A stretch of 64,000 bases of DNA from Cyanophora paradoxa CCMP329 (Eukaryota; Plantae; Glaucophyta): positions 84,327 through 148,326 of the forward strand of contig QPMI01000159.1 of assembly GCA_004431415.1 (NCBI GenBank), written 5' to 3'. Each line of letters starts with the position of its first letter. The first letter of the stretch is position 1. A program made the position numbers and the translations under genes. Below, piece after piece: positions 26,901 through 55,556 of the stretch. The notes beneath the pieces were generated by a model. The model was not told the origin of the DNA. It did no database searches and was given only the letters and a program-made list of their open reading frames with translations.

Positions 26901-28589
26901 GGCGTTGGCGCTCGTCCCCATGAGCGCGAGCATCCCCAAGGACTCCGTCGCGGAGACGTTCCCTGCCCCGCCCACGATGCCGGCCTCGGCGGTCTATACG
27001 GGCGGAGTCCTCATCAAGGGCCCGAAGAGCAGCTACGGCGAAGCAGAGACGTGCCTGACGAACTTTGATGCCGACGGGGACTCCAACCTTCAATTCACCC
27101 CCTGCCAAACCCAGTACATGAATCTCATTGGCGAAGGGACCACTGGAATGGCCCGAGGTGCGCGGCGATCTTACAAATTTCGTTCGATGCTCAGGCCTGC
27201 ATGCTTATCGAGCCGCGAATTTTGCTTCAGTTGGAATCAACCCGAACCAGGTTTGCACCTACAGGGCGTCGAGGCGCGCGCGCGCGGTTTCCCACAGCGC
27301 ACATCTGTTGCGCAGATTTGGCATTTGCGCGAGCCTACGAACGCCGTCAGCCTCTCTTCGAACCAGCAGAAGTACACTATCTTCAATCATGCCAGTGCGC
27401 CACATTTATCGAACGCAATCGCAAATATACAACCGCCGACACATTTAATACTTACCGCGCAGCCGGCAATGTTGTTGAGGCGTTGGGTGCGAATCACGAG
27501 CTCTGATTGTTTTTTCTGACAATTAGGTTCCGTATCGCGAGTCAATTTGGCATGTGCCGATCGTGCCGTGCACGCACGTGCAGGTGGGACCGATAGTTCG
27601 CGCACGGACATTGGAGACATTCTATTCGCGAGAACAAGCACGTCAACGCCAGGCAATAACCAGGTCGTGATTGCGACCACGGTCGCTGGAATTGACCCAT
27701 CGCAAGTGCGTGCCTGCTTGCGATTGCACGAGCTTATTTGCGATCTTGGCTGCCATCATTAGCAGAGATATCGTTGCAGACTGCTAGATGATCATGAGCC
27801 GCGTATTTTCCGCAGCCGAATCTCCAGCTCTCGTTCGCGGACGATCCGTCACTTTGCTTCCAAGGCGGGCGGATGTGCGTGCCCAGCGCTAGCACCGTGC
27901 TGGCTTACTCATTTAAATCAAATATCTCGCTTGCGCATCGACATCCATTTATTGAGGCCTCACTCCTGCGCGCCAATCTGCCCGCAGGCAAACGTGTGAC
28001 GCCTCCGTAAGTAGCTTGGGCTTGTCGTCGCTTGCAATACTTCTTTGCGCTGCCGCTGACGCTGCGCTTCGGCCCGTGCGCGCGTGCGTGTGCTCAGGTG
28101 GAGGCGCAGCTCTCTGCTATCGAGCCAGTCGTCGCGCTCCAAGCCCCGAGCTCGACAATCCCGCCCACGCTCTTCACGCAGCCGTCCAAGACTTTTCAGC
28201 AGCTGGAGGACGAAGGTGCGCGGGGTCCGGGGGGGCCCGGGGGTGCCGGGGGCGGGGGGGTGCGGGGGGGGGGAAGGGGAGGGGGGAGGGGAGAGGGGGG
28301 GAAGGGGGGGGAAATGGGGGAAGGGGAAGGGGGGAGTGGGGGGATTTCTAGATTTAGACGGATCTGGGCTGGGTACCGCGCGTACGCCTGCATCCTACAC
28401 TATATAGCTACTGTGCCCGCAATCACGCACGCGCACGTGAAGGGACAGCGCGGCATAGCTACGAGCTCAAGTGCACGCCTGAGCCGGAGCTCGCCGCTGA
28501 CCTCCGCCCGTGCTCCGATGCGCGTTCGCAGTGGCGTCTGTTTCGGACGACGAAAGCGCCCACGACCTCGACCTGTCGGAGGAGCTTGA
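20985..28589 (+). CDS. Large multi-exon protein, copy A: Thr/Ser-rich beta-type N-terminal region plus three ricin-B (beta-trefoil)-like repeats; 3' end approximate
   Basis: Chain of in-frame exons with GT-AG borders; three repeats of CLT..F..C..PxQ(L/I)W..YN..G.V at ~24.5, 25.8 and 27.0 kb; exons conserved in paralog B. Confidence 0.6.
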
Positions 28590-31500
28590 GTTCGAGGTGC
28601 GATACATATGGATGCGCCTCCGATAGTTCCTGCTCTTGAGAGCCGATGATAGTTCCGGTTGTTGAGAGCTTGATTGTGATATATCGTGATCGCGACTCGT
28701 CATCTTGAGTGAGCCGATTTTGACGGCCTCTTTGAATTAATCGCAGGGCGATGCGGGACCGGCGGCGCACGGCTCGGAGGCTGCGCTCGCGACCGGCCAC
28801 AGCGAGGCGGGCGACTTCGTTGGCTAGACGTCGACTTGAGCTTCGACTTCGACAGCCCGGCCCCCGCTCATCGGAGCTAGCTATAGAGCGGACATCGCTT
28901 CTTCGAAGCAGCGCGCAGATCTACCTATAGACGGATGTAATTGATAACAAGTCGACGTCTAATATTCTATTCAACAAGCGCAATATATATAGACAACGGT
29001 TGGCGGCTATCTTGGCTGAATAATTAAATGAAAGGAGGATCACGACAGGGGCACGATCGCGAGAGCCCTCAAAGCGCAGAAGATAGGCCTAAGAAGAAAC
29101 CGAGAATGAGTTGAGATGACAGAACAAGAAATGACACTCACAATTGAACTAGAAGATCACACTTGAAAAAGCATGCGCACTATGAGACGACAAGACAGAA
29201 AGAGAACGTTAACTGCAGAGACGACGAATCGACGCCAGGTACAGAATGCAAATTTCAAGCAGGCTTCCAGGAGGGGTGAGGCCTCTCGGCCCCACCGTTC
29301 TTTATTGGTAGGTCACGGGCCTCCCCACCGCTCGAAGGATGGTCGGGGGCCCCGGCCTGATGGGGTCTGGCGCTACGCGCCGACAAAAAGCTACGTATAT
29401 ATATACCGGGGAGACTATGTGCCGAGGCAATAGGGGGAGCTGGGGTCCAGGGGAGGAGGCGGGGGCGGTTGAGCTGCTACTGGGGAGCGTTGACGTCGAC
29501 GTTGGGGCGGGGTGGGCCGACGATCGCGAGGAAGGCGAGACCGCGCAGGACCGCAGCCTTCAGGCCCTCCTGGTCGGGCGCCTGCTGCGGCGCCGGACAC
29601 TGGGGCTTAAGAAAGTCTGTTTCCCGGGGGAAACACTCGCATGTTACCCTATAGGTTGGAATGAAGGCTCGATGCTCCGGAGCCGCGCCGGTGGGGATGA
29701 AGCCCTGCAGCTTGGAGGAGCCCCAGGAGGGCGGCCGCCATCGGGGCGGGTTGGCCATGGGTCAGGTCCGGGCCCCGCCCCGCGGCCGCCGATGAGGCCG
29801 CATGCGCCGCGGCGGGCGGCGCGGTACCGGTGTCGTCGGCCGCGCCGGCGCCGCGGGGGCGGCGCGCGGGGGCGGAGGGGCTTTGGACCTCAGGGCCTCA
29901 TGATCATGATCATCGAAAACAATATAGCTATAGCATTATATATATATAGCTAGCTATCTTGAAGAAAGAGAAAGAGAAGGCTACGAGCCTGAAGAAAAAA
30001 ACAGAAATCGAAATCGAATGAGATGTCTCAAATATTAATGTTTTGCAATGATCATGAGCGCGTGGGCTGGTCCCATTCCAAGGCCTCGTACCCCCCGTGC
30101 GGCGGGGGTGGCCTCTAAGGCGGGGGTGCGGGCGGGCGGGCGCCGGCGCCGGCGGCGGGCCAGGCGGGGGCTGCTGGGCCTTGGCCCAGTGGGCCGCCGG
30201 GCCGGGGCCCGGGGCACCTGGAAAGACGGCGCCGATCGCGAGCGGGCGCCTAATTTATAACTGGCAGTAGGGGTGGGGCTAGCCCGCCAAAATTTTGGCT
30301 TAAGCAAAGTCCAAGTCTGAGCTATCGATCGGGCTCAAGCCCAAGCCAAGCCAGCAGCCGGCGGACTCAAGCCCGTTTAAGGCTTGCCGGCACCGGGGCG
30401 ATATCGATCGCGAGGTGATTAATTGTGGTTTTATTTATGATTAATTGACTTAATACTCGGTTTACGTTCATATTATAAATTACCCATGCATAAATGCTTG
30501 TTTAATTAGTAAATATGTTAATGCTCGGTTAAATGTTACCCGTTCATCCCGATCGCGAGGACCTGCAGCTGACGTCGACGAGTACTTCAGTCTTCAGACC
30601 ATGGCCAGAGGTTGGCACAACTTGGCAGGTTGCACAGCAACTTGCACTGCCCCCGGGGCAGGACTGTTTATTCAATGATTGATCCAATGATTAATATAAT
30701 TCCTATCAAGCTCGAAAGTCCGGGGGATCCGATCGGAGTCATTCGAATCGATGAGGCGAATCATTTTCATGCGATCAAAATATCCGACATCGATCGGATT
30801 ATTTTCGGATATCGATCTAGACTCCGACTCATGCATCAGCCTATGACTTGCATAAGATTCTGATGATAAGAAGCGCCTACTACTAGGCTACTAGTAGCCT
30901 TCAAGGCTTGCAAGGCTCGATCGCCGATCGCGCGATCATGGCTGCGCATGCAACTGGCTCCGAGTGGCTCGGGCCTGCCACTGGCCCACTGGCTGCCAGG
31001 AGCTCATCATCTGGCATATGCATGGCATTGCATGCACGGTGATGCACCGTCAATTCGCCGTCAAACGTGAGCGCGCGGGGTACATCACCGTACGCACGCG
31101 CCGTGCATGCCGCACGCGTTTTCGTAAACGTACACGCAGCTATAGGCCTATAGGCTGCTTCCTCACCTGCCCTCGTCATTCTTCCTCGCCCGGCTCGCCG
31201 AGTCCGACGGTCGTTCGAAGTCTCACGAGGCGCATCGCGATCGGCTGTAAAGGCTTAACTTGACTCGGTGAGCCGCATGCGCAGCGCCCTGCATGCGAGC
31301 GTGGTAGCTATAGCTAAAGGAAACAAGCACGAACGGTGCATCGTCCGACGGTCGATTTCGCGCCCTAGGCCTGATCGATATACCATGATTATGAAGGCTT
31401 GAATTTAATTTGACCGTATATATGCGTGTGTATACGAACACGTACATGTACATGTACATGTTCCGAACGCACCGCACAAAGCGGCGTCGGCCGTCGAAGT

Positions 31501-31645
31501 TCGGGCCAAGCTTAAGCAACAGCGCGCGATATAGCCAGCGCGTGCTGGGGTCGAGCTCGAGCTCGCCGAGCCTCGAAGTGTAGAAGGCGCATGCGCAGCC
31601 CACTAAAGCTCCCTCGCCGCGGCGCAGGATCAATCCTGATCTACA

Positions 31646-34600
31646 ATGGCGACGACGATCTACAGCCCTTCTGGCTTCCACCGGTGGAACACGTCTCTGA
31701 TCAGCGGCGCGGGCGGATGGGAGCTTCGGCCGCAGTCCGAGCTCCCTCCTAAGCCCGTTTCGCCGGGGACGGTTTTCGGCGAAGTAGCATTTAACGGATG
31801 GACGTGGAACGGGGCCATGTGGACTCCGCCGTACCCACCGCGTACGTCGCCCACCGCCGACGAGCTCCAGGTGCGATTTGCAATTGACCCGCGTTGAACG
31901 ATTCGACGAGCTCAAGAATTCTCGCATGATCATGAGCTCGCGCATGCAGGCGTGGTTTAATTCGAGCGGAGGTACTAGTACTGTTGTAGCTATTTCGACG
32001 GACAAGACGACGTTGACTTTGACGTCGACGGACTCCACGGCGCCGAATTCGACGGACAGTACTTCGACCGACTCCACGAGCTCGAGTCCGACGAACACCA
32101 CGACCGCGACTCTTGATCAGGATCCGACGGACATCACAGTCCTGCAGCTGCAGCCCTGCGACGAACTCAACGCGTCGCCCGGTGTCAAGATCGAGGCCGT
32201 GCGTCTAGATCTCCCCTTGAATTATATATATCAGTGTATAGTGCATAGATAAACGGCGAGCTTCGTCAAGCGGCCGCGGTTGACGCCTCATGACCAACGC
32301 CGGTGCCGCAGGGAGCGTACGAGCTTCCTTTTACGGAGGTCGGCTCTATCCGCGTCGACTCGGCGGTCTACAATGGCACCGGCCCGTACACGGCGCCTGG
32401 CACCAAGACCCAGCAATACACGTGAGCTCTTCATCATTCATAATCATGGCACGACCATACTAGTACAAATGAGAACCTGAACGTGCGCGTGGCTAGGTAA
32501 AAAAAAGGAGATAGTGTGGGTTCCAGCCCACCCACCTCTTTCTCACCCCCACCCCTCCAATCCCACCAAAACCACCCACTCCAACGCCTTCCCAACCACC
32601 ACTTCCAGACACACTCTCACAACGTCTACCACCCCCACCTCTCCAAGCCAACCAAACAGCATCCGCTAGGTAGTATCTAACGTCTAGTCCGATCGATCTT
32701 GCAAAAGATATAGCAGTGCTTTTAGACGGGAGCGTCAGCCAGAAGGCTTCCTGCTCTTCGAGCCCCAAAGCGTCGGTCTCAGAATCATCTTCAACATCAT
32801 TTAGACGTTAATTGTGTGTACTTTGAATCTAAAAAACAAAGAGGTTTCAAGGTTTAAGCTACACGTAATTACTATATCATCGAAAGCTAATTACATACTC
32901 GAGTTCAGGTTCTAGCTAGACGCTAATTATTCCCAACGATGACGTAGTCCAAGTTTAGTGAAACCACTTAACAATGGTTTGTATTCGATCGACGGCCCGA
33001 CAGGATCAGCGCTGCTAGAGGCGATGCGCAAGATCGATGTGTTTGCTACAGGTAATTCGCTAGCATTCTCATCCACCTCGGGGATTGCGACGATCGTCTT
33101 AGCAGGAACAGCAGATGATGGAGGAGAAAGCTTTTTTTCAATTTTGGTTTTAACAATCGGTTCGTTTAAAATCTTGTTTTCCATTTTAGTCTCAACCGCT
33201 ATACCAGCAATAAGATCACCAGCACGCTTCTTTGAAATTGTTTTCAACCCAGTCACTGTTTTTATGAAATATCTGCTACGATTACCAGTCTCTGATACAT
33301 ACAGCGGACCATCGTCAGTATCCTTCAGTTTACTAGTTTTGCTTTTCTTTGTCCGCGAATTTGGGATCTTATCTAGAATAGCGTTTTCGTCAGCAGTAAG
33401 AGCAAAATCGATAGATGCTCCCTCACCACCAGCTGTCCGACGAACTAAAGGATAAGATTCAGTATCACCGCTCAAAAATTCAATATTATTCTTTTTATTG
33501 GGTGAGTTTGTAAGTTTTCTAGAAGCCGCGCCTAAGAAGCCACTTGTGCTCCGCACCATTTGTTTTAAATAAGGAACAGAAAAAAGTCGACAGACAAGCC
33601 AAGCGCATTCGCGAAGTGAAATTAAGCAAAACTGCGATCAAACGGATGAAACTCACTATCTGTGTTTCTGATTGACGAGCGAAGTGATGCCTTTGTGTAT
33701 GAAGAATCTTCAATTTCGAACTCGATAACGAATGAGAATTCAGTGTTAATAGCTGCAGTAAATCCATTAAAATAACGTATTGACACATCAAGTTGCTCTA
33801 ACTCAGAATTATGATCGACGGAAACAGGAACACGTTCATCAGATGTATATTTGATTAGCTCTCCAAATTTTGCATCGATATGAATCTTTGCCAACGATGT
33901 GTTTGACCAGTTATTTATGGTGTGAATCGAACCACGAATCTGATCGATATGTAAGAAGAGATAAGTATGGTAAAGAAGATCAACAGGTATATCGCCAACG
34001 ATAGCAAACGCATAATCAACAGCATCAACTGTGATTGGAGTATCCAGCTGTTCTGCGGAATCTGTAACAGCCTTTGTGAATCCGAGCAGATTTGCGAGTT
34101 CAAGAGTGGAAAACGTTAGAGTAAACTCCGATTCACACAAGATGGTGATTTTCATTGACACATCATCAAAAACTGTTAAGAACTTTCGCTGGTAAGTACT
34201 CCCCAAATAACTGTATTGTTGCGTTTTCAAAAGAACATTCATGTAATTCGTAAGAGATGTTGGTGTGTATGATCCAGCTCGAAATAGGTTCGATCTGGTT
34301 TTAATGACGTTGCTAGGATCGAGCGTAATGGTTGTTATTGAAGCATCAGCAGCAAGATTATACATATTATGAAAAAGTTCTAGCGATTCAATTCTAGCCG
34401 ACTTCACGTTTGCTAACGCCCGAGGTAGATTAATTTTGAAATTCGAGGACATGCCTTCGAACCGATCTCTAGAATCAACATTTACGCGGAGTTTCATCTT
34501 TACAATATACGTGAAAATATTCTGTAATATAATATCAAATGGCGCAAGCAGGAACTACTCTGAAAGAGCTCCTAACAACCAAAGGATCGAACGAGCTATA

Positions 34601-37600
34601 TCTATCACCAGGTCTAACTGTCGGTGTTAGTCCAAAGTTTAAGCCTTTCCTTGAGACGATCCGTCCGCGAGGTAACTCATACGGATTCGCACAAACTGCC
34701 GCTTTCGATCTTCCGCGCAAGCAACTTCTAAACGGTGTTTCCCTATATTTTAAGGTCACAGTCGCTGGTGGAGCTGCCGCCTCGGTACTACCAAATGGAG
34801 CTGGTGCATTTATCGAAAACGTACGCTTTGTTCATGGTTCATTCAAGATGGTGATACCCGGAGACTGGCTTACTGTGAACGCGCTAATTGATAATAGCGT
34901 TGCATCCGCCCAAGCTTTTGCTAGCAGCTACGGCTTTGGAAAGGACGCTGCTCTTGAGATTCTCGATGCCAGCCGTGAGTACGTGTTAAAGATCCCATCA
35001 CAGCTTTGGGACAATTCATATTTCCCTCTGCTAGCACTTGCGGATATGCCAACCGTCGAGATTGACTTCCGTTCGGCTGGTGTGATTGGAACTGTTGCTG
35101 ATGCTATTGCGACTCTAACGGATTGTGCCCTGGTTTGTCAGTTCGTGAATATTCCGTCCGAAGAGGCAGAGTCTATGCTAAAATCTGCGAACGAGTCTGG
35201 CGGTATTAGAATTCCCTTTACTGAAATCATTTCAAAGCGTTCGAGGCAACTTAAGACCGACGACGCAGGAAACGCGGTTGAAATCTCGCTTGCTAATGTC
35301 AGCGGTCTTGTGCACGCAATTTTGATGACCGTGCGAAATGCGAATCACCTGGGCACACGGAACCACAATTCATTTGCTGGCAATGGTAACGCTTTGAAGA
35401 TTGATTCGTTTGAGATCATGCACAATAATCGTACTCTAGACATCAGCAATAAGCCAATCTCTGGGTTTGTTTCTAGCTGCTATCACATTCCAACTCAATA
35501 CCGCGGCGCAACCACTGGCAATTCAGCCCTTGGCTTCGAGGACGGAAATGTCTATGGGATTGTGCTTTCGAAATCTGGCAAAGACTCACTGCATAACGCT
35601 GTCCTCGGCTACACAGACTTCTTTAATTCCAGCAGCAGCTACTGCTCGCTAACTGTGACCGGCTGCACAAACGCAGCGCCAGCAGTTGTTGACTTCCACG
35701 TCCTGCGTCACAATGTTCTCGTAATTAACTCGTATCAAATGTCAACTCTAAAGGTAAGTAACTTCTAGATGGATATCAAACTGTTTGATCCTACAGAAAT
35801 AAAACTGCCTAAACGGTTCTTGTTTGTCGGCCCCACCAACTCGGGCAAAAGCACCTACGTAAAACACGTATTAAATGCAGTATCAAATCAACTAGACGAT
35901 ATTTACGTCTTTAGTACAACAGCATTTACTGGACAGTGGGATGATACGACTCGCAAGAGCAATATTTACGAAGAATGGGATCCGGTTTCGGTTGAGAGTC
36001 TTCTAGAGCGTCAAAAAGAAAGACGACGCAAGAAAGATGATCGCAAGATTGCAATTGTTTTAGACGATTTACTTGACAATGACCTAGTAAATGTCCACAG
36101 TGACAGACTCATGCAAAAGCTATTTACTTCTGGCCGTCATTATAACACCACCCTTTTCATATCGACTCAACGTCTTTGTGGCATCAGTCCGACGATTCGG
36201 CGAAATTGCGAATATGTATGCTTTTCGTCAATTCTATCGAATATTAAAGAGTTCGATTGCGTCTTTGCCGAATACAACGCCGGAGCGAGTCGAGCAGTTT
36301 TAATGCGTCTTTTCCTTGAATGGGGTCATTCGTATCAGGTTTTGATATTTGAAGCCGCGACCGTGGACCGCGTCTACTCTGTTGATAAATCTTCTGGAGA
36401 TTTTTCGGCTCTATTGCGCTTTGTACACGCAAGAAAGCGGCCCGGTCAAAAGCCGGTAACCAATCCTGTCTAAGCAACCAAGCTGTATATTCTGGACGTG
36501 CTGAGGCAATCCACAAATATGAGGATCCTTTGTAAATGCCAAAGCTGATGCAGTGGCAAGGTGAAAGTTGTGATCTACCCGGCCAACATATTTCTAAATC
36601 TTCTTCAATATCCATCAAAAAGATAAAGGGTGTTATTCCTTCAATTAAACCGTGATTTCGATGTTTGATCTTTATAAGCATCTTCGAATGAATCATAATA
36701 ACCGATTATCTTCCTGCAACCATTGATTTTGGTTTCTGCTTTCCATTTATCGGTTCGTTTGTCAAGGGAAACACGGACATAGTGGTTGGTGGGTCGGTGG
36801 ATTCTCCTCCGGCAATGTTTCAGTAGAAGATACTCAATGTGTTGCTGGATTGCAAAGGCAACGTATATCGGAAGGTTGATATCGGTCATCTCTGACTTTT
36901 TCGTTACATCTACAGATTGCAATATATTTATGGCATATTCACGCGCTTCTACCTTGAATTCTCTTTGCGTAATATCCAGCGGGTTTGGCGCCTGCTCTGA
37001 GCAATGGTTCAGCAGCAATTTCGAGTTTTTTTAGCTCACGATCCTTCAGGTTTTGACCCGCATACGTTTTCGTTTCAACGAGACCCTCTCTCCGAAGCTG
37101 ACGATCTTGCTTCGATCTAGCAGTCGCTCTTTCAATCTTAGACTGGTCAGGTAGTTCTTGTGGCGCACGAATCTCGGATGGTTTCACACGTCTAGAAATT
37201 TCCACACCTTGCTTTGTAATTAACCTAACACGGTTCTTATCAACGCCAGCAACAACGTAGGTCTCTTTGCTTGGTTTCGCCAGACCCTTTGCGAACACGC
37301 TTGGCTTAGGTTCAAGGATCTGCACCTCCGTACCAGGTTTAGGCATATTTGTGTTCTCTCGTTCAATATCATTCTGTCGCTGACGAACTTGATGTAGCTG
37401 TTCGGCTACCTGTGTATTTTCACGCATCCACGTTGGTGATCGCTCTTCACCAAATGCACTGTGTGCTGTTTCATTGTACGCCTTCAAAATCGCAGGCAAG
37501 CGGGAGAGGAAATGCGGGGAGCCGCGTGCCTCTGTGTCGGCCTGGATCAATGCTCGCAATGTCCTAGCGAACCTGTCGATAATTCCAAGTTTGTTACCTT

Positions 37601-40600
37601 TAGAAATGTGGTCATCTTTGGCAACATCAGTATGCATTTTCAACGAGTTATCCTCGGCCATTGCCCGAATTGCTGCTGTGTTAAAACCGTTGTCACCTGA
37701 AAATCCCCATATTCCAGGTAGCTGCTCGATCATTTTTGGAAGCTGCTTAAAAGTCTCGAGCTTACGGACCACAGCAAAGCGGGTTGCAATTTCGACCGCT
37801 GCAAACAGGCGATACCTCCCAATAAACAATACATCAATTTGCCAAGCTCCAGGTGGTGCTGTTATCGTGTACATTCTTCTAATTGTCACACACATAAAAG
37901 TTTTTTGGTGGATATCGCGTGAATATGCCTTAAAAAGATTGTGATTGTGATTAATAATAAAGTGATATTGTAATGGAGATTGAAAACTGTTTGGCGCGCA
38001 AGCGTGGTCGTCCTCCAAAGTCTAAGTCTCCGGAAGTAATAGAAGAGATGAAGAAGAAACGATCAGCAGCGGTAAAAGCTCGTTATCATTCAGATGAGGA
38101 ATTTCGTAAGCGCAAGCTCCAAGCGACGTATGAGTATCAGGAAAGAAATATTGACCGCAAACGGGAGCAGTGCCGTAACTATCGACGTCGGCAAAGACAG
38201 TTGCTTCTAACTTTATTGGAAAAGTTTGGTGCTCAATCGGTTGAGGTAGTTTCAGCAGCCTAATGTTTGGAGGTTCGCTGCAAACTTCTTTTTTCAAATA
38301 CGTGTGCGCCAGTGACCCAGAGCCAAAGTTTCAACGCCATCATCACATAGCCAACGTTTTGTGTCTAGCGGATGAAGTGCCTGTTTTGAAGTTTCTTGCA
38401 CGTAAACCCGATGTTTCTTTGAGCGCATCCCTCGAATTCCATTCACTTCGCATGATAAGTATTTTTTCTGTCCATCTACATCTTTACCAAGTACACAATC
38501 AATATATCTTTCACGTGTAAGCTGGTCGGCAAAACTTTTAGAAATTCCCTTGCAACGTCTTTCTTGCTTACCACTGTCGATCTGATACCAGTAACTCTTT
38601 GGTCGGTTTGCGATGAATTCTACCATTTGCTTGCCATTGCACTCATCTTTGAAATTGCCAAGGGCTGTCGATTTTTTCTTCATGGTAGCGATTTCTTCCT
38701 CCGACATTCCAGCAAAAAACCTGTGTGTATCTGGGTATTTGCTAACGTCTAGAATATGACTTATTTTTTTCAGATCAGCGTACAAATCATCTGTCTCAAT
38801 TCTAAGGATCAGTGAATCCGTATCAGTTGCGAGCAGTTTTACCCGCTGGCCCCAGAGCGGTTTTAATTGCTCGTAGTACATTTTAAACATGTGCAGTTTT
38901 GACATTTCCAAAACGCTGAATCCGCTGTATATCGGTTTGTTTAACTTAACTTGCGATTTACGTTTAGAGATGAATACTAGATCCTCATCATATTTGACAA
39001 TTTGCTTCAACAAATTTGGCTGTGCGGCGATTTTTGACAGACGATCCCCATCAGTCACAAGCTCAGCGTCACAATGCTTTCTAACGTTTTCCATATTTTT
39101 TCCATATAATGCATTAGTCTTCAGCTTGAATAGATCTCGCACATGATCAAACGTTGCAGCTTGACGCATTTCGGCATTTTTTTCCACATACGGTTTCATC
39201 CAAGCACACTGCTTGTACATAATAATCCGATGGATTTTGCTCACGACAAGTCCATGGGCACGGTAAAACTTGAGTAATCTTCCGTCCACAACGTATTTCT
39301 TCAATGGAAGCAGGCATGGAATAAGCTTTCGCGTCTTCATTTGAACACAATCCTTATTAATCATATCCTGTTGTAATGTCGACAACATCAATGGCTCGAC
39401 ACTCATTGCTACTGGGGCGATGGGGTAATCACTAAATTTCTCGTGAAGCTCATCTGGAATGTAAGCATCAATTTCAAGCGTTGCTCCTATATCACCATCA
39501 TAATCGAAACCATCAAGGTCAAAGGTTTCTGGATCAACCCATTTAAAATCTCCAATCGGATGTTTTTCCAACATTGCATATCCATACAGTGAGTTTGCAT
39601 CTATATAGAACAGATATACTGATGGTTTGGATGGATCATAATCAACCATGTCCTTATTGTTCGCTTTTGCATATCGATTTGACACCATTGAAATGCCACC
39701 ACGAATACCAGTCTCGAAGAATCTGAACATATCCTCTTGACCCTCATGCAACAGCTGTAATTGTCCACCTGTATATTTTAGAGCAGCATCCCAACTGAAA
39801 CCTGGCAGACTCATGTAATATGCAGGATCTATGCCATCTGTAGCGCGAGATGTTTCCCGATATGCTTGAAACACGTCTGCTAGTAACGTTATATCCAGCT
39901 TCATATAAGCAATCGTATATTCTAGCAGCGTCTTACATTTTAGTTTTTTCCAAACCTTTTGTGCGTGCTCGTAATCTTCAGGTTTACACTTTTCGTTTTT
40001 CAAGTCATTGTTAAACGACTCTATTGAAGGTAGTTTCCGATCTGCGAGTCGTTTCCACGAATTTACGTAGCTGTACGGATAGATGCCTTTGCGCGTCATC
40101 AGATTAAATGTTTCCAAATCGGGACATAACTCGCGAGTTTGCTTTTTCAGATGATCTGGAAGCGATGCCGCTAGCTTTTCGAGCGTTGCTGATAGATGTT
40201 GCATGCTGTCGCGGAATACGTAAATGCCGTATTCAATTTGACTCATTTTCTCGGAGTTTTGAAACATCACTTCGAAACGATTTGAAAGCGGTGTCTCAGA
40301 TTTCTCGATCTTGATTTTTTCTTTAACAAGCTGGTTCTTGATAAATCCTGGAACTCGCTTCTCATACTCCTCAGCAGTTATGCTCAGTTTGTTCATCGTC
40401 CATTCCCTCACGCTTTGAGTTTGATATGTCTTCTCAAGACGTGCTCGGGTTGCTTCAAGTTTTTCATTCAACTTTTTCTTAAATTCAATATGTGCGGCTT
40501 GTCTTTTTACACTTCCCTTTGCAATTGCGCGGATCAGCAAATGCGAATCGAAACCCCGAGCATTGTGTGCTAGCAAGAAAACGCGTTTTGATTTACATCT

Positions 40601-43600
40601 CCTTCGGTTGCAACCACAGCAAGCAGCACCTTTGAAATCACCATTATCGTGATCGTGGTCCCAGACCTTTTTGATCTTCTCGCTGAATTCAACGTTACAG
40701 ATATAGCAACTAGTAGCTGAATCAAACGTTTGTTTTGCATCATCTGTTTTTATCGCTGGTACCGATGCATTTAGCCCTTTCTTTAAAGTTGGTTCCATTG
40801 AATCTAGCCATTCAATGAACCTCTCCTCGCATCTTCGACCGCTATTTACATGCCAGTATTTTGTATCATCATTGCCTGTGATCAAGCAACCGACGACAGC
40901 AGGTATTTGACACGCAATTTCATCTGTCTTTCCATTTTTCACAGAGTTCGTAGACATTGCAAGTGTTTCAAAATCATAGGCTCCAACATATCGTGCCGTT
41001 ATCGTATTCGCATGGTTCAGGAATTTCAATGTTGAACGGTCGGGTTTTGGAAGCACATCACGGCCATGTTCGTCTCGTTCGAGGCATCTGTCTTCTTCGA
41101 TGTGTTTCTGAAGAGCATCATCACCGCGAAATCCTTTTTGACAAGCGAGACAATAGCTGCGTGCGTTCTTGTCAATTCCAGGACGTGCAAACATTCGGCT
41201 CACGTTCTTGATCCAAACGAAATGGCCATAGCTACCTTCACCAGTCACGTATAGCAGAGGAATAGCTTCGCGGGCCGCTGAGATATAATATGGAGTGATG
41301 TCTTGCTTTTCATTATCAGCCACATACACACATAAATTCAGATTGTTTGCCTCTTCAAACCGACGGAATATCTTTGAATCAAGCGGGACAGGATAACTGA
41401 GCATTGATGTGTCGATCGTACTTAGGTGCTGTCTGTACTTGGCAGCACGTTGAGCATGCCGATCGATTGGGAACTTTGCGGATAAAACTGAATACGTAAA
41501 ACACATATTATCTGGTGCCTCCACGTTTATGACTGCGTTCTTCTTGCTAATCCATGTTGGAAGTTCAAATGATGCTCCACCAACGGCGCGGACATGTTCT
41601 AGACTTTGTATGTAAAAATACGTCCACGTTTCTAATTCCCAGCTGTCATTCTCCTGTTCTGCTCTTCCATCGATCTCAACACATCTGTCACGCAGCTCAA
41701 CTTCAATGTTTGCACCGGGGAGGATACGGTAGAATTGATCTTCACTGATTTCATCTGTTTTGAAGCGGTTAGTAAAACCTTCTGTGCCATTCTGCCTATG
41801 CTTAAAAATTCCTTTTGCATATACCTTGATTGACAGCCCCATTCGAGATTCATTCGCTGAATTCAAACGTTCGGCTATGAATCGCTCGAATTTTGCCTTG
41901 AATTCTGGTGTGTTCGTCAGGTACGACGCGAGCGATGTAACTCGTAGACCGTTCGGCCTGATGATCGCAGCGCTTTCGAGTGCGTATATTCCATCTAGTG
42001 CCGTCTCGCGTGAACCATCTCCAGCAAGTTCCTCATATGGCAGGTCGGGAAGTTCGTTGAAAAGTGTTACCAATTCCGCTTGGTTCTCAGCGATAATTAT
42101 CTGAACTGTTCTTTCTGAAGCACGTCTTGTTTGACCAACAACAGCAGCTAGCAATGAAAGTAAATCAGCAGTTCGTTGCAGTGTCGCAAATCTTGTTCGT
42201 GACCCTGGTGATGAGATTCTAAGTAATTTGTTTCGATATAGTCCATGAATACGTCTACGATCATACAAATTTTGTGCTAGACCTACAATCTGTTGTTTCA
42301 GTAACGATATTTGACGGCGACGATCAATTTGATTCATTGTGAAAGTGTCGCTAGAAATAAATTTCGGTTGATCAACGCGATCTTATATCACTTTATATTG
42401 ATGCTAAAACCTTTAAGACACAGATATAACCTGAACCTAAACTTGGACTACGTCATCGGTGGGAATAATTACGTGTAGCATAACCCTTGAAACCTCTTTG
42501 TTTTTTAGATTCGAAATACACACAATTAACGTCTAGATGATGTTGAAGATGATTCTGAGACCGGCGCTTGGGGGGCTCGAAGAGCAGGAAGCCTTCTGGC
42601 TGACGCTCCCGCCTCAAATCATTGCTATATCTTTTGCAAGATCGATCGGACTAGACGTTAGATACTACCTAGCGGTTGCTGTTTGGTTGGTTTGGATAGG
42701 TTGTGGGGTAGACGTAACGAAGGATTGGAAGAGAATGAGTGATGGAAGGCGTTGGAGTGGGTGGTTTTGGTGGGATTGGATGGGTGGGGGTGGTGAAGAG
42801 GGGGGTGGGCTGGAACCCCCACTATCTCCTTTTTTTCAGGTACACTGACCCGTACAAGCAGACAAAGACTTTCGATGCTACGGACAGCTACACCGAAACT
42901 GGTTCGAGCGTTTCATAATTGCATCGAATAGCAAACCGGTTGCAGCGGCCGCGCCCGTGGCCAGCTGCGGCGCGCTGTTGGAACCCGAATTTGCAGCTCA
43001 CTCTTTTTCTCAGGCAAATACGTGATTCGCCAGCACGTTACGCCCACTGACACCTTCTATGGCAAGGAGGTCCCAATCAGGTGCGCTTCGTAAGGCTGCA
43101 GCTGCTCGCCGCGAGCTCGAGCATCCTGATCGGAGCCTTGAATTTAATTCGGATGTGTGCAGCGCCAGCACGCACACGCCCACCCCGGCGGAGGACAAGA
43201 TCACGTGGACCCGCGACGAGAAGACAGAGTCTTTCAACGGCACCTCCTCGAGCCAGACCTCGAAAATCCCTTCGGCCCCGGAGCGCCTCCCCGCCCCGGG
43301 CGCCCCCGGCGAGTGGACCCAGGAGGGTCTGACGATCACGAGCACGAAGAACGAGGTCATCACGTACGCGGCTGCGCAGCAGGCCTGCTCCGGCACCGGC
43401 CCCTGGTGCGCATGTGCCTTAAGGTTTCGCTGATGATCACGACGCATATGAGAACTCGGAAATAATTAATTACTATATGAACACGTAGCCTGTTCTAGCT
43501 CTAGATCTCCCCCGCGCTGTCGGCCGCAAGCCGCTGAGTCTACGTATTTTTGCAGCTTCCAGGCGAATCTGTACTCGCTCTCGGTTGAGCAGGCGAAGCC

Positions 43601-46345
43601 GCTGACCGACCTCTCGACCTTCACCGACGAAACGGTCAAAGCCACATTGGAGTCGATGCTTCTCAGCGCCCGCGGCCTCAACGAGGTGCGTGACGTGGAG
43701 CAACGTTTAGAACAATTATATAATTAAGAACTGATGGCGATGTCGACGTCCTTGCGTGCAGATTTCCGATCCCGAGGCATTCACGAAAGTTGTACTGCCC
43801 GGCGTGCCGCTTACGAAGGTGCGCTACAATTTGCAACCTCAAAGCTGAAGCTTAAGATGGGTCGAGCGCGCTCACACTGCGTCGCCGTCGCTTGCGATGG
43901 CACAGGACGTGCAAACGATTCCCTACACGCTCACCTACGACGTGAACACGCACAAGGACTTCCAGCGCACGGTCGAGGAGAAGGGCACTTTCTCCAAGAC
44001 AGAGGTGCGGCAATATTATATGCATAGCGAACGCTGGACGCGCGTTCGCTGCCGCCGTTGCACGTGTGTCGAATTCACCCTGTGCGGGGGCAGACGGGCA
44101 CAATCAGCGGCGTCGGTCCCTACACGTTCCTCGACGGCGGCTTTGACATCGGCGATTACGCCAAACCCGGTGCGTACCCTGAAGCGAATTGCATTTATAG
44201 TTTTATATATGCATCCTTATCTTATTTCCAACGTCGGATAATGTCGATTGACCTTTCCTCGCGCAGGGCTCGAGGTGAATCTGGCGCCGGCTCTGACGCT
44301 CTCATAAATACTTGTACCAGTTACTCGAGAAACCTGTAATGAGCTTACGGCTGCCAATTTGCGCAGGTCGGGCGGTACGAGGTGCACGCACGCGAGGACC
44401 GCGAGAGCACCACCAAGACCGCGCACACCGAGGTGGAGAACATCAATCCCAACCAGGTAAGCTAGCGCGTGATTTCATACCCGGTCCGGGCTCTTCTTTC
44501 GACCTGATGCTATTTCGAATTCGCGCGCCGCGTGCAGACGCTTCTGCCTGGCGGGACCGAGCTTCCTAGCGGCTCCGCCAGCCTGACGCCCACTTCCAAA
44601 ATCAGCGGCACGCGGGTGCGCCCGGCCGCGGCCCCGACCCGGCCCTTGCGCATCTTTAGACTCGTGACTACTTTCGCTCGCATCTTCTGAACGCTCCCTT
44701 TCAACCGCAGGATCCGGTTTCGGAGACGCGGACCGACAAGGCCCAAATCTTTGTGCCCGAGAAGTTTATTCCGGGGTTCGTGCTTGCGTGTGCTCGCGTC
44801 CTGTCCATCCTATTTCTAATTATGCGTCCACATTCATCCCAGGGCAATCAACACGACCCCCGACTTTACGGCCTCGGCTCCCGGCCCCAAGTCCTGCATC
44901 ACGGTGCGTGCTGCAAGATCAGCCGCGATCGATCCCAACAAATCAGATCATCGGATTGAAGCTCCGCGCCGCCTCTACTCACGCTTGCTCATTGTTTGCA
45001 GGGCGATTGCTTGGCGCTGAAGGGTCCCAGCGTCAACTACTCCGCGCAGATATCAAGCATGTGCCGGTGCGTGTTAGCTGTTCTCTCTCATACAGCGTCC
45101 AGATCGCTGATCACGATGATCTGATGTCGCTACGTATATACGAATATGCGTAGCGACGATGGGAAGTGCGAGGTCCCGACGGACATGAAGTGCCCCCTTC
45201 CGCTGGACACGTCATCGGCCACTTCCAACACCAGCACCACCGCCACCGACACCAGCGGCACCACCAGCACCACCACCGACACCAGCGGCACCACCACCAC
45301 CACCGACACCAGCTCCACCACCACCGACAACAGCGGCACCACCAGTACCACCACCGACACCAGCGGCACCACCACCACCACCGACACCAGCACCACCACC
45401 ACCGACACCAGCGGCACCACCACCACCACCGACACCAGCACCACTACCACCGACACCAGCGGCACCACCGATACCACCAGCGGAGGAACGACATTGTATT
45501 ACGGAGGCTTCCCCTTGGTGTCATCCGAGAACGACTCCCGCTGCCTCACGCACGACGTTGAAAAGGGTATTCTTTCTTTCGACGAATGTGGCTACAAACA
45601 GTTTTATGACAATGTCAACGACAATGACCACATGGGTGCGCGCGCGTACAATCCATATATATTATATATGCATGGCACTATACCTCTGTTCTCTCCGTGC
45701 ATATATGGCTAGCTATATACGACTAAGCGCATGCATATGCGCATGCGCAGCTCTGGATCCTTATCAGCTCTGGGTGCAAGTACCAAACGTGAACACGGGG
45801 AAAACGGTCATGATGAACTGGGGCAGCGGAGCTGTCCTTCAAACGACAGGAGGTCCGTGAAAGTCCGACATGCTAGAGCTCGCTGCGCGTACACCTGGCT
45901 TCAGCATGCGCAGTAATAGTGTAAAACTGATTACTACACATCATCCCCTGCACTTGATAACGTGTAACCCAACGTTAACGAAATAATGCAGGGATCTCCG
46001 AGACGCACGAGGCGGGTGATCAGGTGGTGGCTTCGGCCAACATCGGGTGGGAGGGCGTGGCAGGGGTCGAAGGGACATCCTTCCACGACGCGGGCACTGC
46101 GGCCGCCCTTCTAAAGATCACCCCGCCCGGCATGACACTGCGTTTCGGAGATGCGGACTCGCTCTGCGTCAAAGATGGAGGAGTCAACACCCTTCCCACG
46201 CTGTGCGTCGCATTTTCATTCGCGCTTTGAAATCGATAATGCATGTACTACGGTAGCATGCGTATGCACCTTCGGCTCTGATAATGAGCTTTTCGGATCG
46301 ACTCGGCAGGGCCGCTTGCACGGCCGATGCGTCGGTACGTCGTGA
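31646..46345 (+). CDS. Paralog copy B of the ricin-B-like repeat gene; split by element 1 and cut off or interrupted by element 2
   Basis: Same MATTIYSPSGFHRWNTSL start; exon ending TKTQQY at 32421 resumes with YTDPYKQTKTFD from 42840. Confidence 0.65.
32500..32958 (+). repeat. Left terminal inverted repeat of element 1
   Basis: Starts AAAAAAAGGAGATAGTG; reverse complement of 42439-42836 with substitutions and a ~55-bp extra segment at ~32872-32925. Confidence 0.9.
32927..33559 (-). CDS. Element 1 hypothetical basic protein (210 aa)
   Basis: ATG-initiated intronless ORF, Lys-rich; no family recognised. Confidence 0.6.
   Translation of the reverse strand: MVRSTSGFLGAASRKLTNSPNKKNNIEFLSGDTESYPLVRRTAGGEGASIDFALTADENAILDKIPNSRTKKSKTSKLKDTDDGPLYVSETGNRSRYFIKTVTGLKTISKKRAGDLIAGIAVETKMENKILNEPIVKTKIEKKLSPPSSAVPAKTIVAIPEVDENASELPVANTSILRIASSSADPVGPSIEYKPLLSGFTKLGLRHRWE
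33622..34497 (-). CDS. Minor capsid (penton) protein
   Basis: N-terminal VDSRDR..SSNFKINLP..NVKSARIESLEL..YNL; LLGF; YLFLHIDQI; C-terminal LDVSIRYFNG..EFSFVIEF typical of PLV/Polinton single-jelly-roll pentons. Confidence 0.8.
   Translation of the reverse strand: MKLRVNVDSRDRFEGMSSNFKINLPRALANVKSARIESLELFHNMYNLAADASITTITLDPSNVIKTRSNLFRAGSYTPTSLTNYMNVLLKTQQYSYLGSTYQRKFLTVFDDVSMKITILCESEFTLTFSTLELANLLGFTKAVTDSAEQLDTPITVDAVDYAFAIVGDIPVDLLYHTYLFLHIDQIRGSIHTINNWSNTSLAKIHIDAKFGELIKYTSDERVPVSVDHNSELEQLDVSIRYFNGFTAAINTEFSFVIEFEIEDSSYTKASLRSSIRNTDSEFHPFDRSFA
34539..35768 (+). CDS. Major capsid protein (double jelly-roll, inferred)
   Basis: 409 aa beta-rich; FDLP, FPLLAL..VEIDF, terminal HNVLVI; lies between penton and packaging ATPase. 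Confidence 0.8.
   Translation: MAQAGTTLKELLTTKGSNELYLSPGLTVGVSPKFKPFLETIRPRGNSYGFAQTAAFDLPRKQLLNGVSLYFKVTVAGGAAASVLPNGAGAFIENVRFVHGSFKMVIPGDWLTVNALIDNSVASAQAFASSYGFGKDAALEILDASREYVLKIPSQLWDNSYFPLLALADMPTVEIDFRSAGVIGTVADAIATLTDCALVCQFVNIPSEEAESMLKSANESGGIRIPFTEIISKRSRQLKTDDAGNAVEISLANVSGLVHAILMTVRNANHLGTRNHNSFAGNGNALKIDSFEIMHNNRTLDISNKPISGFVSSCYHIPTQYRGATTGNSALGFEDGNVYGIVLSKSGKDSLHNAVLGYTDFFNSSSSYCSLTVTGCTNAAPAVVDFHVLRHNVLVINSYQMSTLKVSNF
35769..36473 (+). CDS. A32/FtsK-like genome packaging ATPase
   Basis: Walker A GPTNSGKS, Walker B IVLDD, GRHYN..ISTQ, IRRNC. Confidence 0.92.
   Translation: MDIKLFDPTEIKLPKRFLFVGPTNSGKSTYVKHVLNAVSNQLDDIYVFSTTAFTGQWDDTTRKSNIYEEWDPVSVESLLERQKERRRKKDDRKIAIVLDDLLDNDLVNVHSDRLMQKLFTSGRHYNTTLFISTQRLCGISPTIRRNCEYVCFSSILSNIKEFDCVFAEYNAGASRAVLMRLFLEWGHSYQVLIFEAATVDRVYSVDKSSGDFSALLRFVHARKRPGQKPVTNPV
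36641..36889 (-). CDS. Small AP2-like DNA-binding domain protein (possibly frameshifted, continuing to ~36.45 kb)
   Basis: YVRVSLDKRTDKWKAETKINGCRKIIGYYDSFEDA matches the AP2 pattern V....KW.A.I...G....G.F...E.A. Confidence 0.55.
   Translation of the reverse strand: MTDINLPIYVAFAIQQHIEYLLLKHCRRRIHRPTNHYVRVSLDKRTDKWKAETKINGCRKIIGYYDSFEDAYKDQTSKSRFN
36939..37871 (-). CDS. Retroviral-like (rve) integrase; start approximate
   Basis: WQIDVLF, VEIATRFA, SGDNGF, LGIIDRFARTLR, YNETAHS..SP. Confidence 0.85.
   Translation of the reverse strand, partial: YTITAPPGAWQIDVLFIGRYRLFAAVEIATRFAVVRKLETFKQLPKMIEQLPGIWGFSGDNGFNTAAIRAMAEDNSLKMHTDVAKDDHISKGNKLGIIDRFARTLRALIQADTEARGSPHFLSRLPAILKAYNETAHSAFGEERSPTWMRENTQVAEQLHQVRQRQNDIERENTNMPKPGTEVQILEPKPSVFAKGLAKPSKETYVVAGVDKNRVRLITKQGVEISRRVKPSEIRAPQELPDQSKIERATARSKQDRQLRREGLVETKTYAGQNLKDRELKKLEIAAEPLLRAGAKPAGYYAKRIQGRSA
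37973..38263 (+). CDS. Small basic protein with AT-hook-like motif and coiled coil
   Basis: RKRGRPPK; ARYHSDEEFRKRK. Confidence 0.6.
   Translation: MEIENCLARKRGRPPKSKSPEVIEEMKKKRSAAVKARYHSDEEFRKRKLQATYEYQERNIDRKREQCRNYRRRQRQLLLTLLEKFGAQSVEVVSAA
38294..42337 (-). CDS. Protein-primed family B DNA polymerase (Polinton type, with EndoVII-like Zn insert)
   Basis: Exo YDFET, HNARGFDSH, FRDS; KGIYPY; polymerase YIDANSLYG, KLKTNALYGK, TDTDS; CYIC..DHDH..G..CCGCN insert; intact 1347 aa. Confidence 0.96.
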   Translation of the reverse strand: MNQIDRRRQISLLKQQIVGLAQNLYDRRRIHGLYRNKLLRISSPGSRTRFATLQRTADLLSLLAAVVGQTRRASERTVQIIIAENQAELVTLFNELPDLPYEELAGDGSRETALDGIYALESAAIIRPNGLRVTSLASYLTNTPEFKAKFERFIAERLNSANESRMGLSIKVYAKGIFKHRQNGTEGFTNRFKTDEISEDQFYRILPGANIEVELRDRCVEIDGRAEQENDSWELETWTYFYIQSLEHVRAVGGASFELPTWISKKNAVINVEAPDNMCFTYSVLSAKFPIDRHAQRAAKYRQHLSTIDTSMLSYPVPLDSKIFRRFEEANNLNLCVYVADNEKQDITPYYISAAREAIPLLYVTGEGSYGHFVWIKNVSRMFARPGIDKNARSYCLACQKGFRGDDALQKHIEEDRCLERDEHGRDVLPKPDRSTLKFLNHANTITARYVGAYDFETLAMSTNSVKNGKTDEIACQIPAVVGCLITGNDDTKYWHVNSGRRCEERFIEWLDSMEPTLKKGLNASVPAIKTDDAKQTFDSATSCYICNVEFSEKIKKVWDHDHDNGDFKGAACCGCNRRRCKSKRVFLLAHNARGFDSHLLIRAIAKGSVKRQAAHIEFKKKLNEKLEATRARLEKTYQTQSVREWTMNKLSITAEEYEKRVPGFIKNQLVKEKIKIEKSETPLSNRFEVMFQNSEKMSQIEYGIYVFRDSMQHLSATLEKLAASLPDHLKKQTRELCPDLETFNLMTRKGIYPYSYVNSWKRLADRKLPSIESFNNDLKNEKCKPEDYEHAQKVWKKLKCKTLLEYTIAYMKLDITLLADVFQAYRETSRATDGIDPAYYMSLPGFSWDAALKYTGGQLQLLHEGQEDMFRFFETGIRGGISMVSNRYAKANNKDMVDYDPSKPSVYLFYIDANSLYGYAMLEKHPIGDFKWVDPETFDLDGFDYDGDIGATLEIDAYIPDELHEKFSDYPIAPVAMSVEPLMLSTLQQDMINKDCVQMKTRKLIPCLLPLKKYVVDGRLLKFYRAHGLVVSKIHRIIMYKQCAWMKPYVEKNAEMRQAATFDHVRDLFKLKTNALYGKNMENVRKHCDAELVTDGDRLSKIAAQPNLLKQIVKYDEDLVFISKRKSQVKLNKPIYSGFSVLEMSKLHMFKMYYEQLKPLWGQRVKLLATDTDSLILRIETDDLYADLKKISHILDVSKYPDTHRFFAGMSEEEIATMKKKSTALGNFKDECNGKQMVEFIANRPKSYWYQIDSGKQERRCKGISKSFADQLTRERYIDCVLGKDVDGQKKYLSCEVNGIRGMRSKKHRVYVQETSKQALHPLDTKRWLCDDGVETLALGHWRTRI
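42439..42836 (-). repeat. Right terminal inverted repeat of element 1
   Basis: Ends CACTATCTCCTTTTTTT, followed by CAGGTA. Confidence 0.9.
45228..45483 (+). repeat. Coding minisatellite (ACC-rich; TTTDTSG repeats) specific to copy B
   Basis: About ten imperfect ACCACCACCGACACCAGC(GGC) units; copy A has one unit at ~24430. Confidence 0.9.
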
Positions 46346-46892
46346 TCACAGTCTAGATCTAGATCAACGCGAGCTTTATTTGAGAATATTAATATGTGTG
46401 TCTCGTTAATCTTATCTTGCATACGTGTCGACGTCGCAGGGAATCCATTTCGCCGATTTTAATGCTTACCCGCTTCCGCCGAAATTCTACTGCTCGCTGG
46501 GTGGTCACCCCCACCAATTGCGCGACCTTCCCGCGACCATTTTCAATAAGCACATTTTCAGCATCACGAATCTCAGTCACAAAATCACAAATTCGCACTG
46601 AGCCACATTGTATTTTTCAAACATCTAACTCCTCCTTACTGAAACCAATCACAAAAACCTACATATAATCTTCTCTCTAATCCCTTACCATTTTCAGTAA
46701 GCCTTTATTCCGCCTTCCGATCTCTCAGTAAGGACAGTAAGACCCTATTTTTTGCGTAATGTTCCTGATCCTTGTCGAACTGTTTTCAGTAGTCCAATTT
46801 GAAAAATCAAGGTGAGCCCCACCGATAGGTTAAATTAACTTATATAGTGCGTATATCCCCACTTAAAGATTTCCCACTATACAAGTATAAAG

Positions 46893-47216
46893 ATGCCGGG
46901 TAATCAGCTCCCCTTACCTAAAAGTAAACTGTGCAATGTGTGCAAAGAGGTCAAGCCTGCATCGTGGTTCCCTTTGCGCAAGTGCAAGTCGGGAAATATA
47001 ACATTATATTGGAGATGCATAGAGTGCCACCGTGACTATCAAAATGATCACTATCACAATGTCTTAAAAACGCGTCCGAAAATCGAAGTACAATCGAAGA
47101 TATGCCCGGATTGCAAGATTGAGAAGCCTGCAAGCGAGTATAATAAAAAGCAAAGTACGAAGGATGGTCTCTACTATAAATGCCGACAGTGTTATAGTGA
47201 GACTCGGACGAGCTAA
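46893..47216 (+). CDS. Tandem C4 zinc-ribbon protein
   Basis: CNVCKEVKP..F..CIEC and CPDCKIEKP..Y..KDGL..CRQC. Confidence 0.75.
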   Translation: MPGNQLPLPKSKLCNVCKEVKPASWFPLRKCKSGNITLYWRCIECHRDYQNDHYHNVLKTRPKIEVQSKICPDCKIEKPASEYNKKQSTKDGLYYKCRQCYSETRTS

Positions 47217-47251
47217 TTTATGATTTTAAAATGAGATTTATATTTTTTAAA

Positions 47252-47304
47252 GCAAGTTTGTGCATGAGCAAGCATGCCGAAAATGCCCACCTGCACAAAC
47301 TTGC
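47252..47304 (+). terminator. Hairpin 3' of the zinc-ribbon ORF (possible 3'-end signal)
   Basis: Perfect 13-bp stem GCAAGTTTGTGCA/TGCACAAACTTGC; function inferred. Confidence 0.35.
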
Positions 47305-47457
47305 GAGATCAAGGTAAGCCCCACCGACAAAGTACGACGATAGACCACGTTAAAATACACTCGCGCCCCGCCCACTATGCAAGATACATGCGAACAACAT
47401 GCATGATCTATGAAAAATGATAAAATGAACAGGGTAAAAATATCGACTTAAATAATA

Positions 47458-47850
47458 ATGGATTCCCGATACCGCGGCTACCACGTTATGCTCGACTATA
47501 TAACCGAGCCGTTTACTGAGTCCCCGGAGGCATGCGCCGAGTGGATCACAGCGAACCTATCGCAATATATCACAGATCGCAATATGCGCATCGTGCACCA
47601 GCACACATGCATTTTCGATGGCTGTAATTCCCCTCCCGGTTTCGCGATTGGCTTTCTATTAGATGAGTCGCATGCCACAGCTCACTCTTATAGCGACCAG
47701 GGGCTATTAGCGATCGATATCTTTACATGCGGCTCAAATGCCGAAGCGAAGACAATGGGTATAGCACAGGACATTAACGATCTCATACAGGAAAGGCTGA
47801 AAGTGCGAAAGTGGGACTTACAGGTCGAGCAAAGGTTCCCAATTTCATAA
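47458..47850 (+). CDS. speD: Prokaryote-type (class 1b) S-adenosylmethionine decarboxylase proenzyme
   Basis: GYHVMLD, F..PPG..LLDESHATAHSY..G..AIDIFTCG with the E-S autocleavage site; 130 aa. Confidence 0.88.
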   Translation: MDSRYRGYHVMLDYITEPFTESPEACAEWITANLSQYITDRNMRIVHQHTCIFDGCNSPPGFAIGFLLDESHATAHSYSDQGLLAIDIFTCGSNAEAKTMGIAQDINDLIQERLKVRKWDLQVEQRFPIS

Positions 47851-47875
47851 AAAATGAAAAAAACGACAGATATAT

Positions 47876-48190
47876 TTAATGCTCCTTGATCGGAAACTTG
47901 CCCATTAGCGGGTGATCGAGACCCATGACATACCAGGATTTCATAACGGGATCCCAGCGGGCTTTCTCAGCCTTCGCTTGATCCTTAAATTCATAAGGAA
48001 TATCGAGGTAAACCTTCACGTTTCTTTGATACACTTGCTCATAGCTTAGAGTTTTGAACTGAGAGCATAGAGAGTGATCTTTCTTCGTGACATACCAGCA
48101 TGAATTCTCACGATCCCACTTTCCACCGAGGGATTTCGCAACGTCTTTTTTATCATACGGAATGTCCACGAAATGCTTTTCACCCTCCAT
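47876..48190 (-). CDS. Tandem DUF5710-like protein
   Basis: Two copies of (F/Y).DIPY..KD.AK....WD....WYV. Confidence 0.75.
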   Translation of the reverse strand: MEGEKHFVDIPYDKKDVAKSLGGKWDRENSCWYVTKKDHSLCSQFKTLSYEQVYQRNVKVYLDIPYEFKDQAKAEKARWDPVMKSWYVMGLDHPLMGKFPIKEH

Positions 48191-48203
48191 CTCTTTTATA
48201 TTT

Positions 48204-48220
48204 ACCGGAGAAAATAATTT
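48204..48220 (-). promoter_or_regulatory. Element 2 conserved upstream motif AAATTATTTTCTCCGGT
   Basis: 13 nt before ATG 48190; identical copy at 53552-53568. Confidence 0.65.
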
Positions 48221-48229
48221 CGGGGTTTG

Positions 48230-49612: not shown

Positions 49613-49631
49613 TTCTTCTAATTAAACCTGT

Positions 49632-53529: not shown

Positions 53530-53551
53530 CTCTATTAGTTCTTTTAAAATA

Positions 53552-53568
53552 ACCGGAGAAAATAATTT
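53552..53568 (-). promoter_or_regulatory. Element 2 conserved upstream motif
   Basis: ACCGGAGAAAATAATTT on +, 22 nt before ATG 53529. Confidence 0.65.
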
Positions 53569-53697
53569 CGGCGCAATCTACCAAATTCTCCTTTCATACC
53601 CTTGTCGCCAAATCTTTAAGTGCTTTTTTGACCGATACGGGGAATAAAAATGGAGGTAAAAAATTAATCATTTTTTGCATCGTGTGGATACTTTCCG

Positions 53698-54111: not shown

Positions 54112-54119
54112 TTACTATA

Positions 54120-54136
54120 ACCGGAGAAAATAGTTT
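54120..54136 (-). promoter_or_regulatory. Element 2 conserved upstream motif (1 mismatch)
   Basis: ACCGGAGAAAATAGTTT on +, 8 nt before ATG 54111. Confidence 0.6.
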
Positions 54137-55554: not shown

Positions 55555-55556
55555 GA

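Follow-up and report, generated by a model that had tools for sequence, protein, structure and literature searches.

A Polinton-type virus lying exactly on a 3' splice site of a host gene in Cyanophora paradoxa, probably by chance

Whether a DNA virus can settle inside a coding gene and leave the transcript as a spliceosomal intron is the question raised by a locus of the glaucophyte alga Cyanophora paradoxa CCMP329. The window, meaning the whole stretch of 64,000 nucleotides analysed here (contig QPMI01000159.1, positions 84,327 to 148,326 of the forward strand), holds two tandem paralogs, genes A and B, and a virus element of 10,337 bp (32500-42836) that sits exactly on the 3' splice site of intron 3 of gene B. 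A first-pass annotation had proposed that this virus is drawn to AGGT-type targets and hides as an intron in the manner of introners, adding that a single insertion could also be chance. That fallback fits the numbers best, and a chance landing of the virus, probably disabling gene B as a dispensable paralog, is judged reasonably likely.

Exons 1-3 of gene B (forward strand, 31646-31870, 31950-32198 and 32312-32421, from the gene model and similarity to A) lead into the original intron 3 of 75 nt (32422-32496, forward strand), which opens with the donor GTGAGC and closes with a TAG acceptor, here called proximal. The virus begins with A7 on the left, ends with T7 on the right and is flanked by a target-site duplication (TSD), TAGGTA at 32494-32499 and CAGGTA at 42837-42842, as had been claimed from the first reading. 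The acceptor AG is contained in the duplicated bases and hence stands at both virus ends, its distal copy at 42838-42839. A single mismatch, at acceptor position -3, separates the two copies, and the duplication can also be parsed as a perfect 5-bp AGGTA with one extra base or as a 4-bp AGGT with A8 and T7C ends, leaving its length ambiguous at 4, 5 or 6 bp. Two clues bear on the polarity of the -3 change: paralog A points to an ancestral CAG, and the A at 32499 in two other ends of the virus family points to an ancestral T at 42837. An 8-mer inside the left terminal inverted repeat (TIR), GCTAGGTA at 32662-32669, equals the target site at 32492-32499, probably by chance.

Both junctions are real and not products of assembly, because contigs of public DNA runs span them with 0 differences, the left in 4 of 4 runs and the right in 2 of 4 among the pieces listed, 978 more lying outside that list, and because no joint skipping the element occurs among the 14 listed. 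An assembly artefact, which the TSD mismatch and a TIR identity of only about 89% might suggest, is practically negligible as an explanation in view of these contigs and of the host exons, whose order across the element is the same as in paralog A. The observation made in the first-pass annotation is confirmed with corrections, which concern the TSD mismatch, the TIR identity, the automatic nature of the restored frame and a donor that is not host-like.

Judged by its predicted genes, the element is a Polinton-type virus, compact in size and a member of a multi-copy family, and its earlier description as a Polinton-like virus of about 10.3 kb holds. It combines a protein-primed family B polymerase (pPolB), a retroviral-type (rve-like) integrase, a packaging ATPase, a predicted double jelly-roll capsid protein, TIRs and a 4-6-bp TSD. 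The TIR cores lie at 32500-32871, starting with A7 and followed by a further short matching piece at about 32915-32958, and at 42466-42836, ending in CTCC-T7 as defined by repeat comparison; they share 337 identities, with 28 mismatches and 13 gap positions. The predicted major capsid protein (34539-35768, forward strand, 409 amino acids) was assigned by structure, its model reaching a Foldseek E value of 9e-16 to the PBCV-1 capsid at a predicted local distance difference test (pLDDT) score of 60, compared with a pLDDT of only 30 for the model built from the single sequence. Directly behind it lies an A32-type packaging ATPase (35769-36473, forward strand, 234 amino acids; PF04665, E 5e-9, with a Walker A motif). 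The putative integrase (36939-37895, reverse strand, 318 amino acids) matches the rve Pfam family weakly (E 0.09) and reaches E 1e-20 to the rve protein of a neighbouring element, itself a clear rve protein. Its third catalytic residue looks like D, not the E found at that position of the canonical rve triad. The pPolB (38294-42337, reverse strand, 1347 amino acids) was recognised by profile search and motifs; 2388 of 6824 candidates matched at E<=0.001, many of them PF03175, the nearest matches were 32-42% identical and mostly unnamed, and a sequence search of PDB gave no match.

The other open reading frames (ORFs) of the virus are a 210-residue frame on the reverse strand (32927-33559) for which the Pfam scan gave no family match, a candidate minor capsid protein of 291 residues (33622-34497, reverse strand), suggested by its position and by its resemblance to unnamed viral clusters, an 82-residue frame (36641-36889, reverse strand) with a weak AP2-domain match below the cut-off (E 0.015), and a basic frame of 96 residues from the ORF list (37973-38263, forward strand). 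No Pfam match to an Ulp1-type cysteine protease was obtained in the ORFs scanned, a scan that left out the 96-residue frame, and the element is therefore labelled Polinton-type or Polinton-like and not a classical Polinton. With Polintons/Mavericks and the rve-integrase Polinton-like viruses (PLVs) of protists it shares pPolB, the rve-like integrase, the packaging ATPase and the double jelly-roll capsid, as well as TIRs of several hundred bp, a 5-6-bp TSD and membership of a multi-copy family; it differs in its small size, 10.3 kb against the 14-40 kb quoted for PLVs (PMC11071308, PMC12220804). The missing protease match, the A-run ends and a capsid with few relatives further set it apart. Among 1.84 billion representatives, the capsid had 3 matches at E<=0.001, one of them from the same species, and a word search with the capsid gave no match. 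None of the related-locus searches, run with the capsid, the capsid alignment, pPolB and the ATPase, turned up a relative, a TIR pattern search of viral and metagenome contigs found nothing, and six viral proteins had no exact match in the sequence collection. Another capsid homolog with 27% identity (P0122) is present among the Cyanophora paradoxa gene models, and a further divergent virus family is therefore likely in the same species.

Depth estimates, which are rough because they sum contig depths, place the family at 2.6-8.5 times single-copy depth over pPolB and 11-26 times over capsid and ATPase, with about 14-15 family ends at the outer TIR. The ORFs cover 91% of the virus interior without a break, and this copy looks little decayed because 22 of 27 classified differences from other family copies are synonymous; the 27 come from 40 differences listed, 13 having been dropped as TIR, intergenic or indel-cluster positions, and 637 further rows lie outside this set. 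On the same evidence of unbroken interior frames and mostly synonymous differences, the idea that the TIR and TSD copies mismatch because they are old was rejected. The left and right TIRs differ in clusters although the ORFs are intact, which may reflect recombination between subfamilies, and further TIR variants exist in other family copies. Cryptophyte PLVs have TSDs of 4-6 bp that vary in sequence, a 5-bp example being shifted by a single base, and the TIRs that accompany them are 77-100% identical (PMC12220804, supplement).

Could this insertion nevertheless be spliced out? Donors and acceptors were scored with a small matrix built from the 29 modelled introns of A and B, which measure 67-166 nt, end in CAG in 27 cases and carry G at donor position +5 in 26; these models are predicted, sites of this kind had an advantage in the scoring, and introns shared by the two paralogs do not count as independent. 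Several observations weigh against a simple disabling landing. The T7 end supplies a polypyrimidine tract, as first claimed, and the distal acceptor scores 11.3 within a host range of 2.0-11.9, exceeded by 3 of 29 host acceptors and by none of the 538 AGs inside the virus, compared with 4.2 for the weak proximal TAG. The sole TSD mismatch, at acceptor -3, favours the distal site. The insertion stands at about single-copy depth, and an empty-site joint is missing from the 14 joints listed. The downstream modelled exons of gene B (42840-46491, forward strand; the gene model, with shared exons compared to A) are free of stops and show a ratio of non-synonymous to synonymous differences (pN/pS) of about 0.19 against A (18 non-synonymous and 30 synonymous over 303 codons). 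Finally, a merged flank of two other family ends, which are 2 of about 12, finishes in CAG with an agreement of 0.68.

Most of these observations argue for a second explanation, in which the virus also landed by chance but this single copy would at least partly be spliced out between the host donor at 32422 and the distal AG, as an intron of 10.4 kb, perhaps helped by a later change at -3; gene B would then stay functional and the insertion would be tolerated. The distal AG is the strongest acceptor in the 10-kb interval, the change at -3 has the favourable direction, the downstream exons are open and appear to be under purifying selection, and spliceable insertions are recognised to arise when transposons enter AGGT (PMC3443670). 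The join of 32421 to 42840 is in frame, as had been claimed, and reads TQQYT-YTDPYKQ, the same as A across its intron 21847-21940. The frame is restored because the acceptor AG is duplicated, and the join was therefore rejected as independent evidence. Against splicing out stand a predicted intron of 10,418 nt, 121 times the species mean of 86 nt, the sense-strand capsid and ATPase genes that it would hold, and the original proximal acceptor, which survives and whose use, like retention of the intron, gives a stop right after TQQYT. One pattern found no branch-point-like motif before 42839, as in several host introns, and the RNA folding of the distal acceptor region is not unusual (z -1.4). 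Three public runs presumed to be RNA gave 0 contigs over 31600-32550, and none was listed for 41500-46400, a blank that says nothing for or against expression. The open, low-pN/pS downstream exons fit, at the level of sequence, either a working gene or a recent insertion, the latter equally in keeping with the 22 of 27 synonymous differences, and roughly one random single change in four, as estimated here, would likewise favour the distal site. Splicing out of this copy is on balance doubtful, and a chance landing that probably disabled gene B remains the preferred reading.

A further part of the earlier proposal was that the left junction joins an acceptor to a usable, recursive-type donor. 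Recursive splicing uses AG/GT sites, and the feature shared with such sites is real, the acceptor being directly followed by GT at 32495-32498. The GT at 32497, however, scores 2.3 as a donor in its genomic context and -0.7 when reconstituted after a first splice, below the host range of 3.9-11.2 and thus below all 29 modelled host donors; GTAAAA is not host-like. By these host statistics the site would not be usable, and its role as a recursive donor is not supported. Inside the virus, median host strength is reached by 9 of 538 AGs and 3 of 601 GTs.

The single insertion seen here would also fit a virus family that targets acceptors (AG/G or AGGT) and whose A7/T7 termini evolved under selection to restore them; in this introner-like strategy, whole, coding-intact viruses would leave transcripts as spliceosomal introns of 10 kb. 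There are introners that borrow splice sites from their TSDs (PMC9860276), and the other two family ends have a merged flank that closes with CAG. Both other family ends listed, however, align only from 32499 and lack the T at 32498; because an AGGT or YAGGTA target requires that T in either orientation, the two ends lack the AGGT context. The ends visible are 2 of roughly 12, with flanks given as a merged consensus, and on their alignment a strict AGGT targeting appears contradicted. A looser acceptor bias would be compatible with the CAG flank, yet the flank is weak evidence because AG occurs on one strand in 41-48% of 5-6-mers drawn at random from the host. Further points against targeting are the TSD GT that host statistics make unusable as a donor, the available replication explanation for the A-run, the failure to make a new intron position and the family medians of introners, 30-654 nt (PMC9860276). 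The hiding strategy, which the two ends without AGGT, the poor donor and a chance rate of about 1% leave unsupported, is very improbable as a trait of the whole family.

The chance rate itself was derived from published gene and intron counts: the 99.94-Mb genome of Cyanophora paradoxa, which is likely haploid, has 25,831 genes carrying 9.2 introns each on average, and the introns average 86 bp (PMC6704402). A random 4-6-bp duplication would include a true acceptor AG in 0.7-1.2% of insertions genome-wide and in 1.5-2.5% within the modelled part of gene B. At least one acceptor landing is expected with a probability of 5-21% for 7-20 copies and of 51-70% among 100 insertions.

In the preferred reading, a multi-copy Polinton-type virus would have inserted by chance at an existing 3' splice site through its rve-like integrase, and a staggered cut, presumed from the observed duplication, would have copied 4-6 bp together with the acceptor AG. 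Both virus ends carry an A-run, and a T-run therefore precedes the duplicated AG in either orientation. The A-run is most simply seen as a feature of protein-primed replication. Phages phi29 and Nf begin protein-primed replication on terminal T-runs by sliding back (PMC3480470), an explanation that may carry over to this virus by analogy. With host introns as short as they are, splicing of the 75-nt intron would be expected either to use the proximal AG, which survives, or to fail and leave the intron in place; a stop follows within one codon in both cases. Beyond it, the transcript would continue through viral genes in sense orientation and past numerous cryptic sites. The splice-ready right junction would be a by-product of insertion.

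Comparison with known routes of intron gain places the locus between categories. The proposed gain of introns by transposon insertion into AGGT shares with it a TSD that duplicates AG/GT, flanking GT...AG and an unchanged coding sequence (PMC3443670), but here a virus with coding genes entered an acceptor that already existed, and the GT gained is poor as a donor. The intron position is shared with paralog A, and because the site was already an acceptor the insertion makes no new one. Introners likewise co-opt a splice site from the TSD beside the TIR (PMC9860276, PMC12130899, PMC11282704), a feature present here at the DNA level, with the AG coming from the TSD and the T-tract from the TIR. 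Introners are, however, short, repeated at many genic sites and demonstrably spliced (PMC9860276, PMC12130899, PMC11282704, PMC12166617). Viruses are treated as carriers of introners and not as introns themselves (PMC12130899, PMC12166617), and a virus spliced as an intron is not described in the available parts of PMC10120064, PMC11282704 and the Halocafeteria preprint. Neither such a virus nor a family targeting acceptors was found in the open-licence literature, a corpus that leaves subscription journals mostly uncovered.

The surrounding host genes A (20985-28880, forward strand, uninterrupted, its orthologous intron at 21847-21940 ending in CAG) and B (31646-46491) are tandem and intron-rich, and their product is a Ser/Thr-rich protein with QLW-type repeats, presumably reminiscent of ricin-B-type lectin folds. 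Gene B has an expanded Thr-rich array (45225-45469); its 3' part (45400-46470) does not align to A. The exon at 42840-42901 and the start of the next exon were missed by the automatic model of B and were set by alignment to A. Further paralog-like contigs match the downstream exons of B in the DNA runs.

A second, different and partly decayed Polinton-like element occupies 46492-64000, with an rve integrase, a helicase piece and an A32 ATPase. Its left edge, placed from contigs that end at 46521 in 3 of 4 DNA runs, would lie about 50 nt into the last modelled exon of B and not at an acceptor, and gene B would have been truncated by it. The element has lower GC, is partly frameshifted, extends beyond the window at its far end and carries an S-adenosylmethionine decarboxylase gene (47458-47850, Pfam E 1e-11). 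GC drops sharply from about 70% (3000-18500) to about 55% (19000-46400), and both viruses lie in or beside this lower-GC domain. Elsewhere in the window, positions 1-2100 hold a direct repeat with 1302-bp spacing, about 92% identity and internal 148-bp units, a near-perfect hairpin of 32 nt lies upstream of gene A (19933-20004), and the host exon at 11051-11446 is 100% identical to the protein of a Cyanophora paradoxa gene model.

The locus shows that a glaucophyte alga carries a Polinton-type virus that is compact and has a divergent capsid. It also poses, as a clean experiment of nature, the question of whether a genome of short introns can splice out 10 kb of inserted DNA when the distal acceptor is perfect. 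If it were spliced, living inside a coding gene would cost a DNA virus little, and such viruses would be pre-adapted to this fate by their T-run ends. If the family were to target acceptors, it would provide a link between introners and endogenous viruses.

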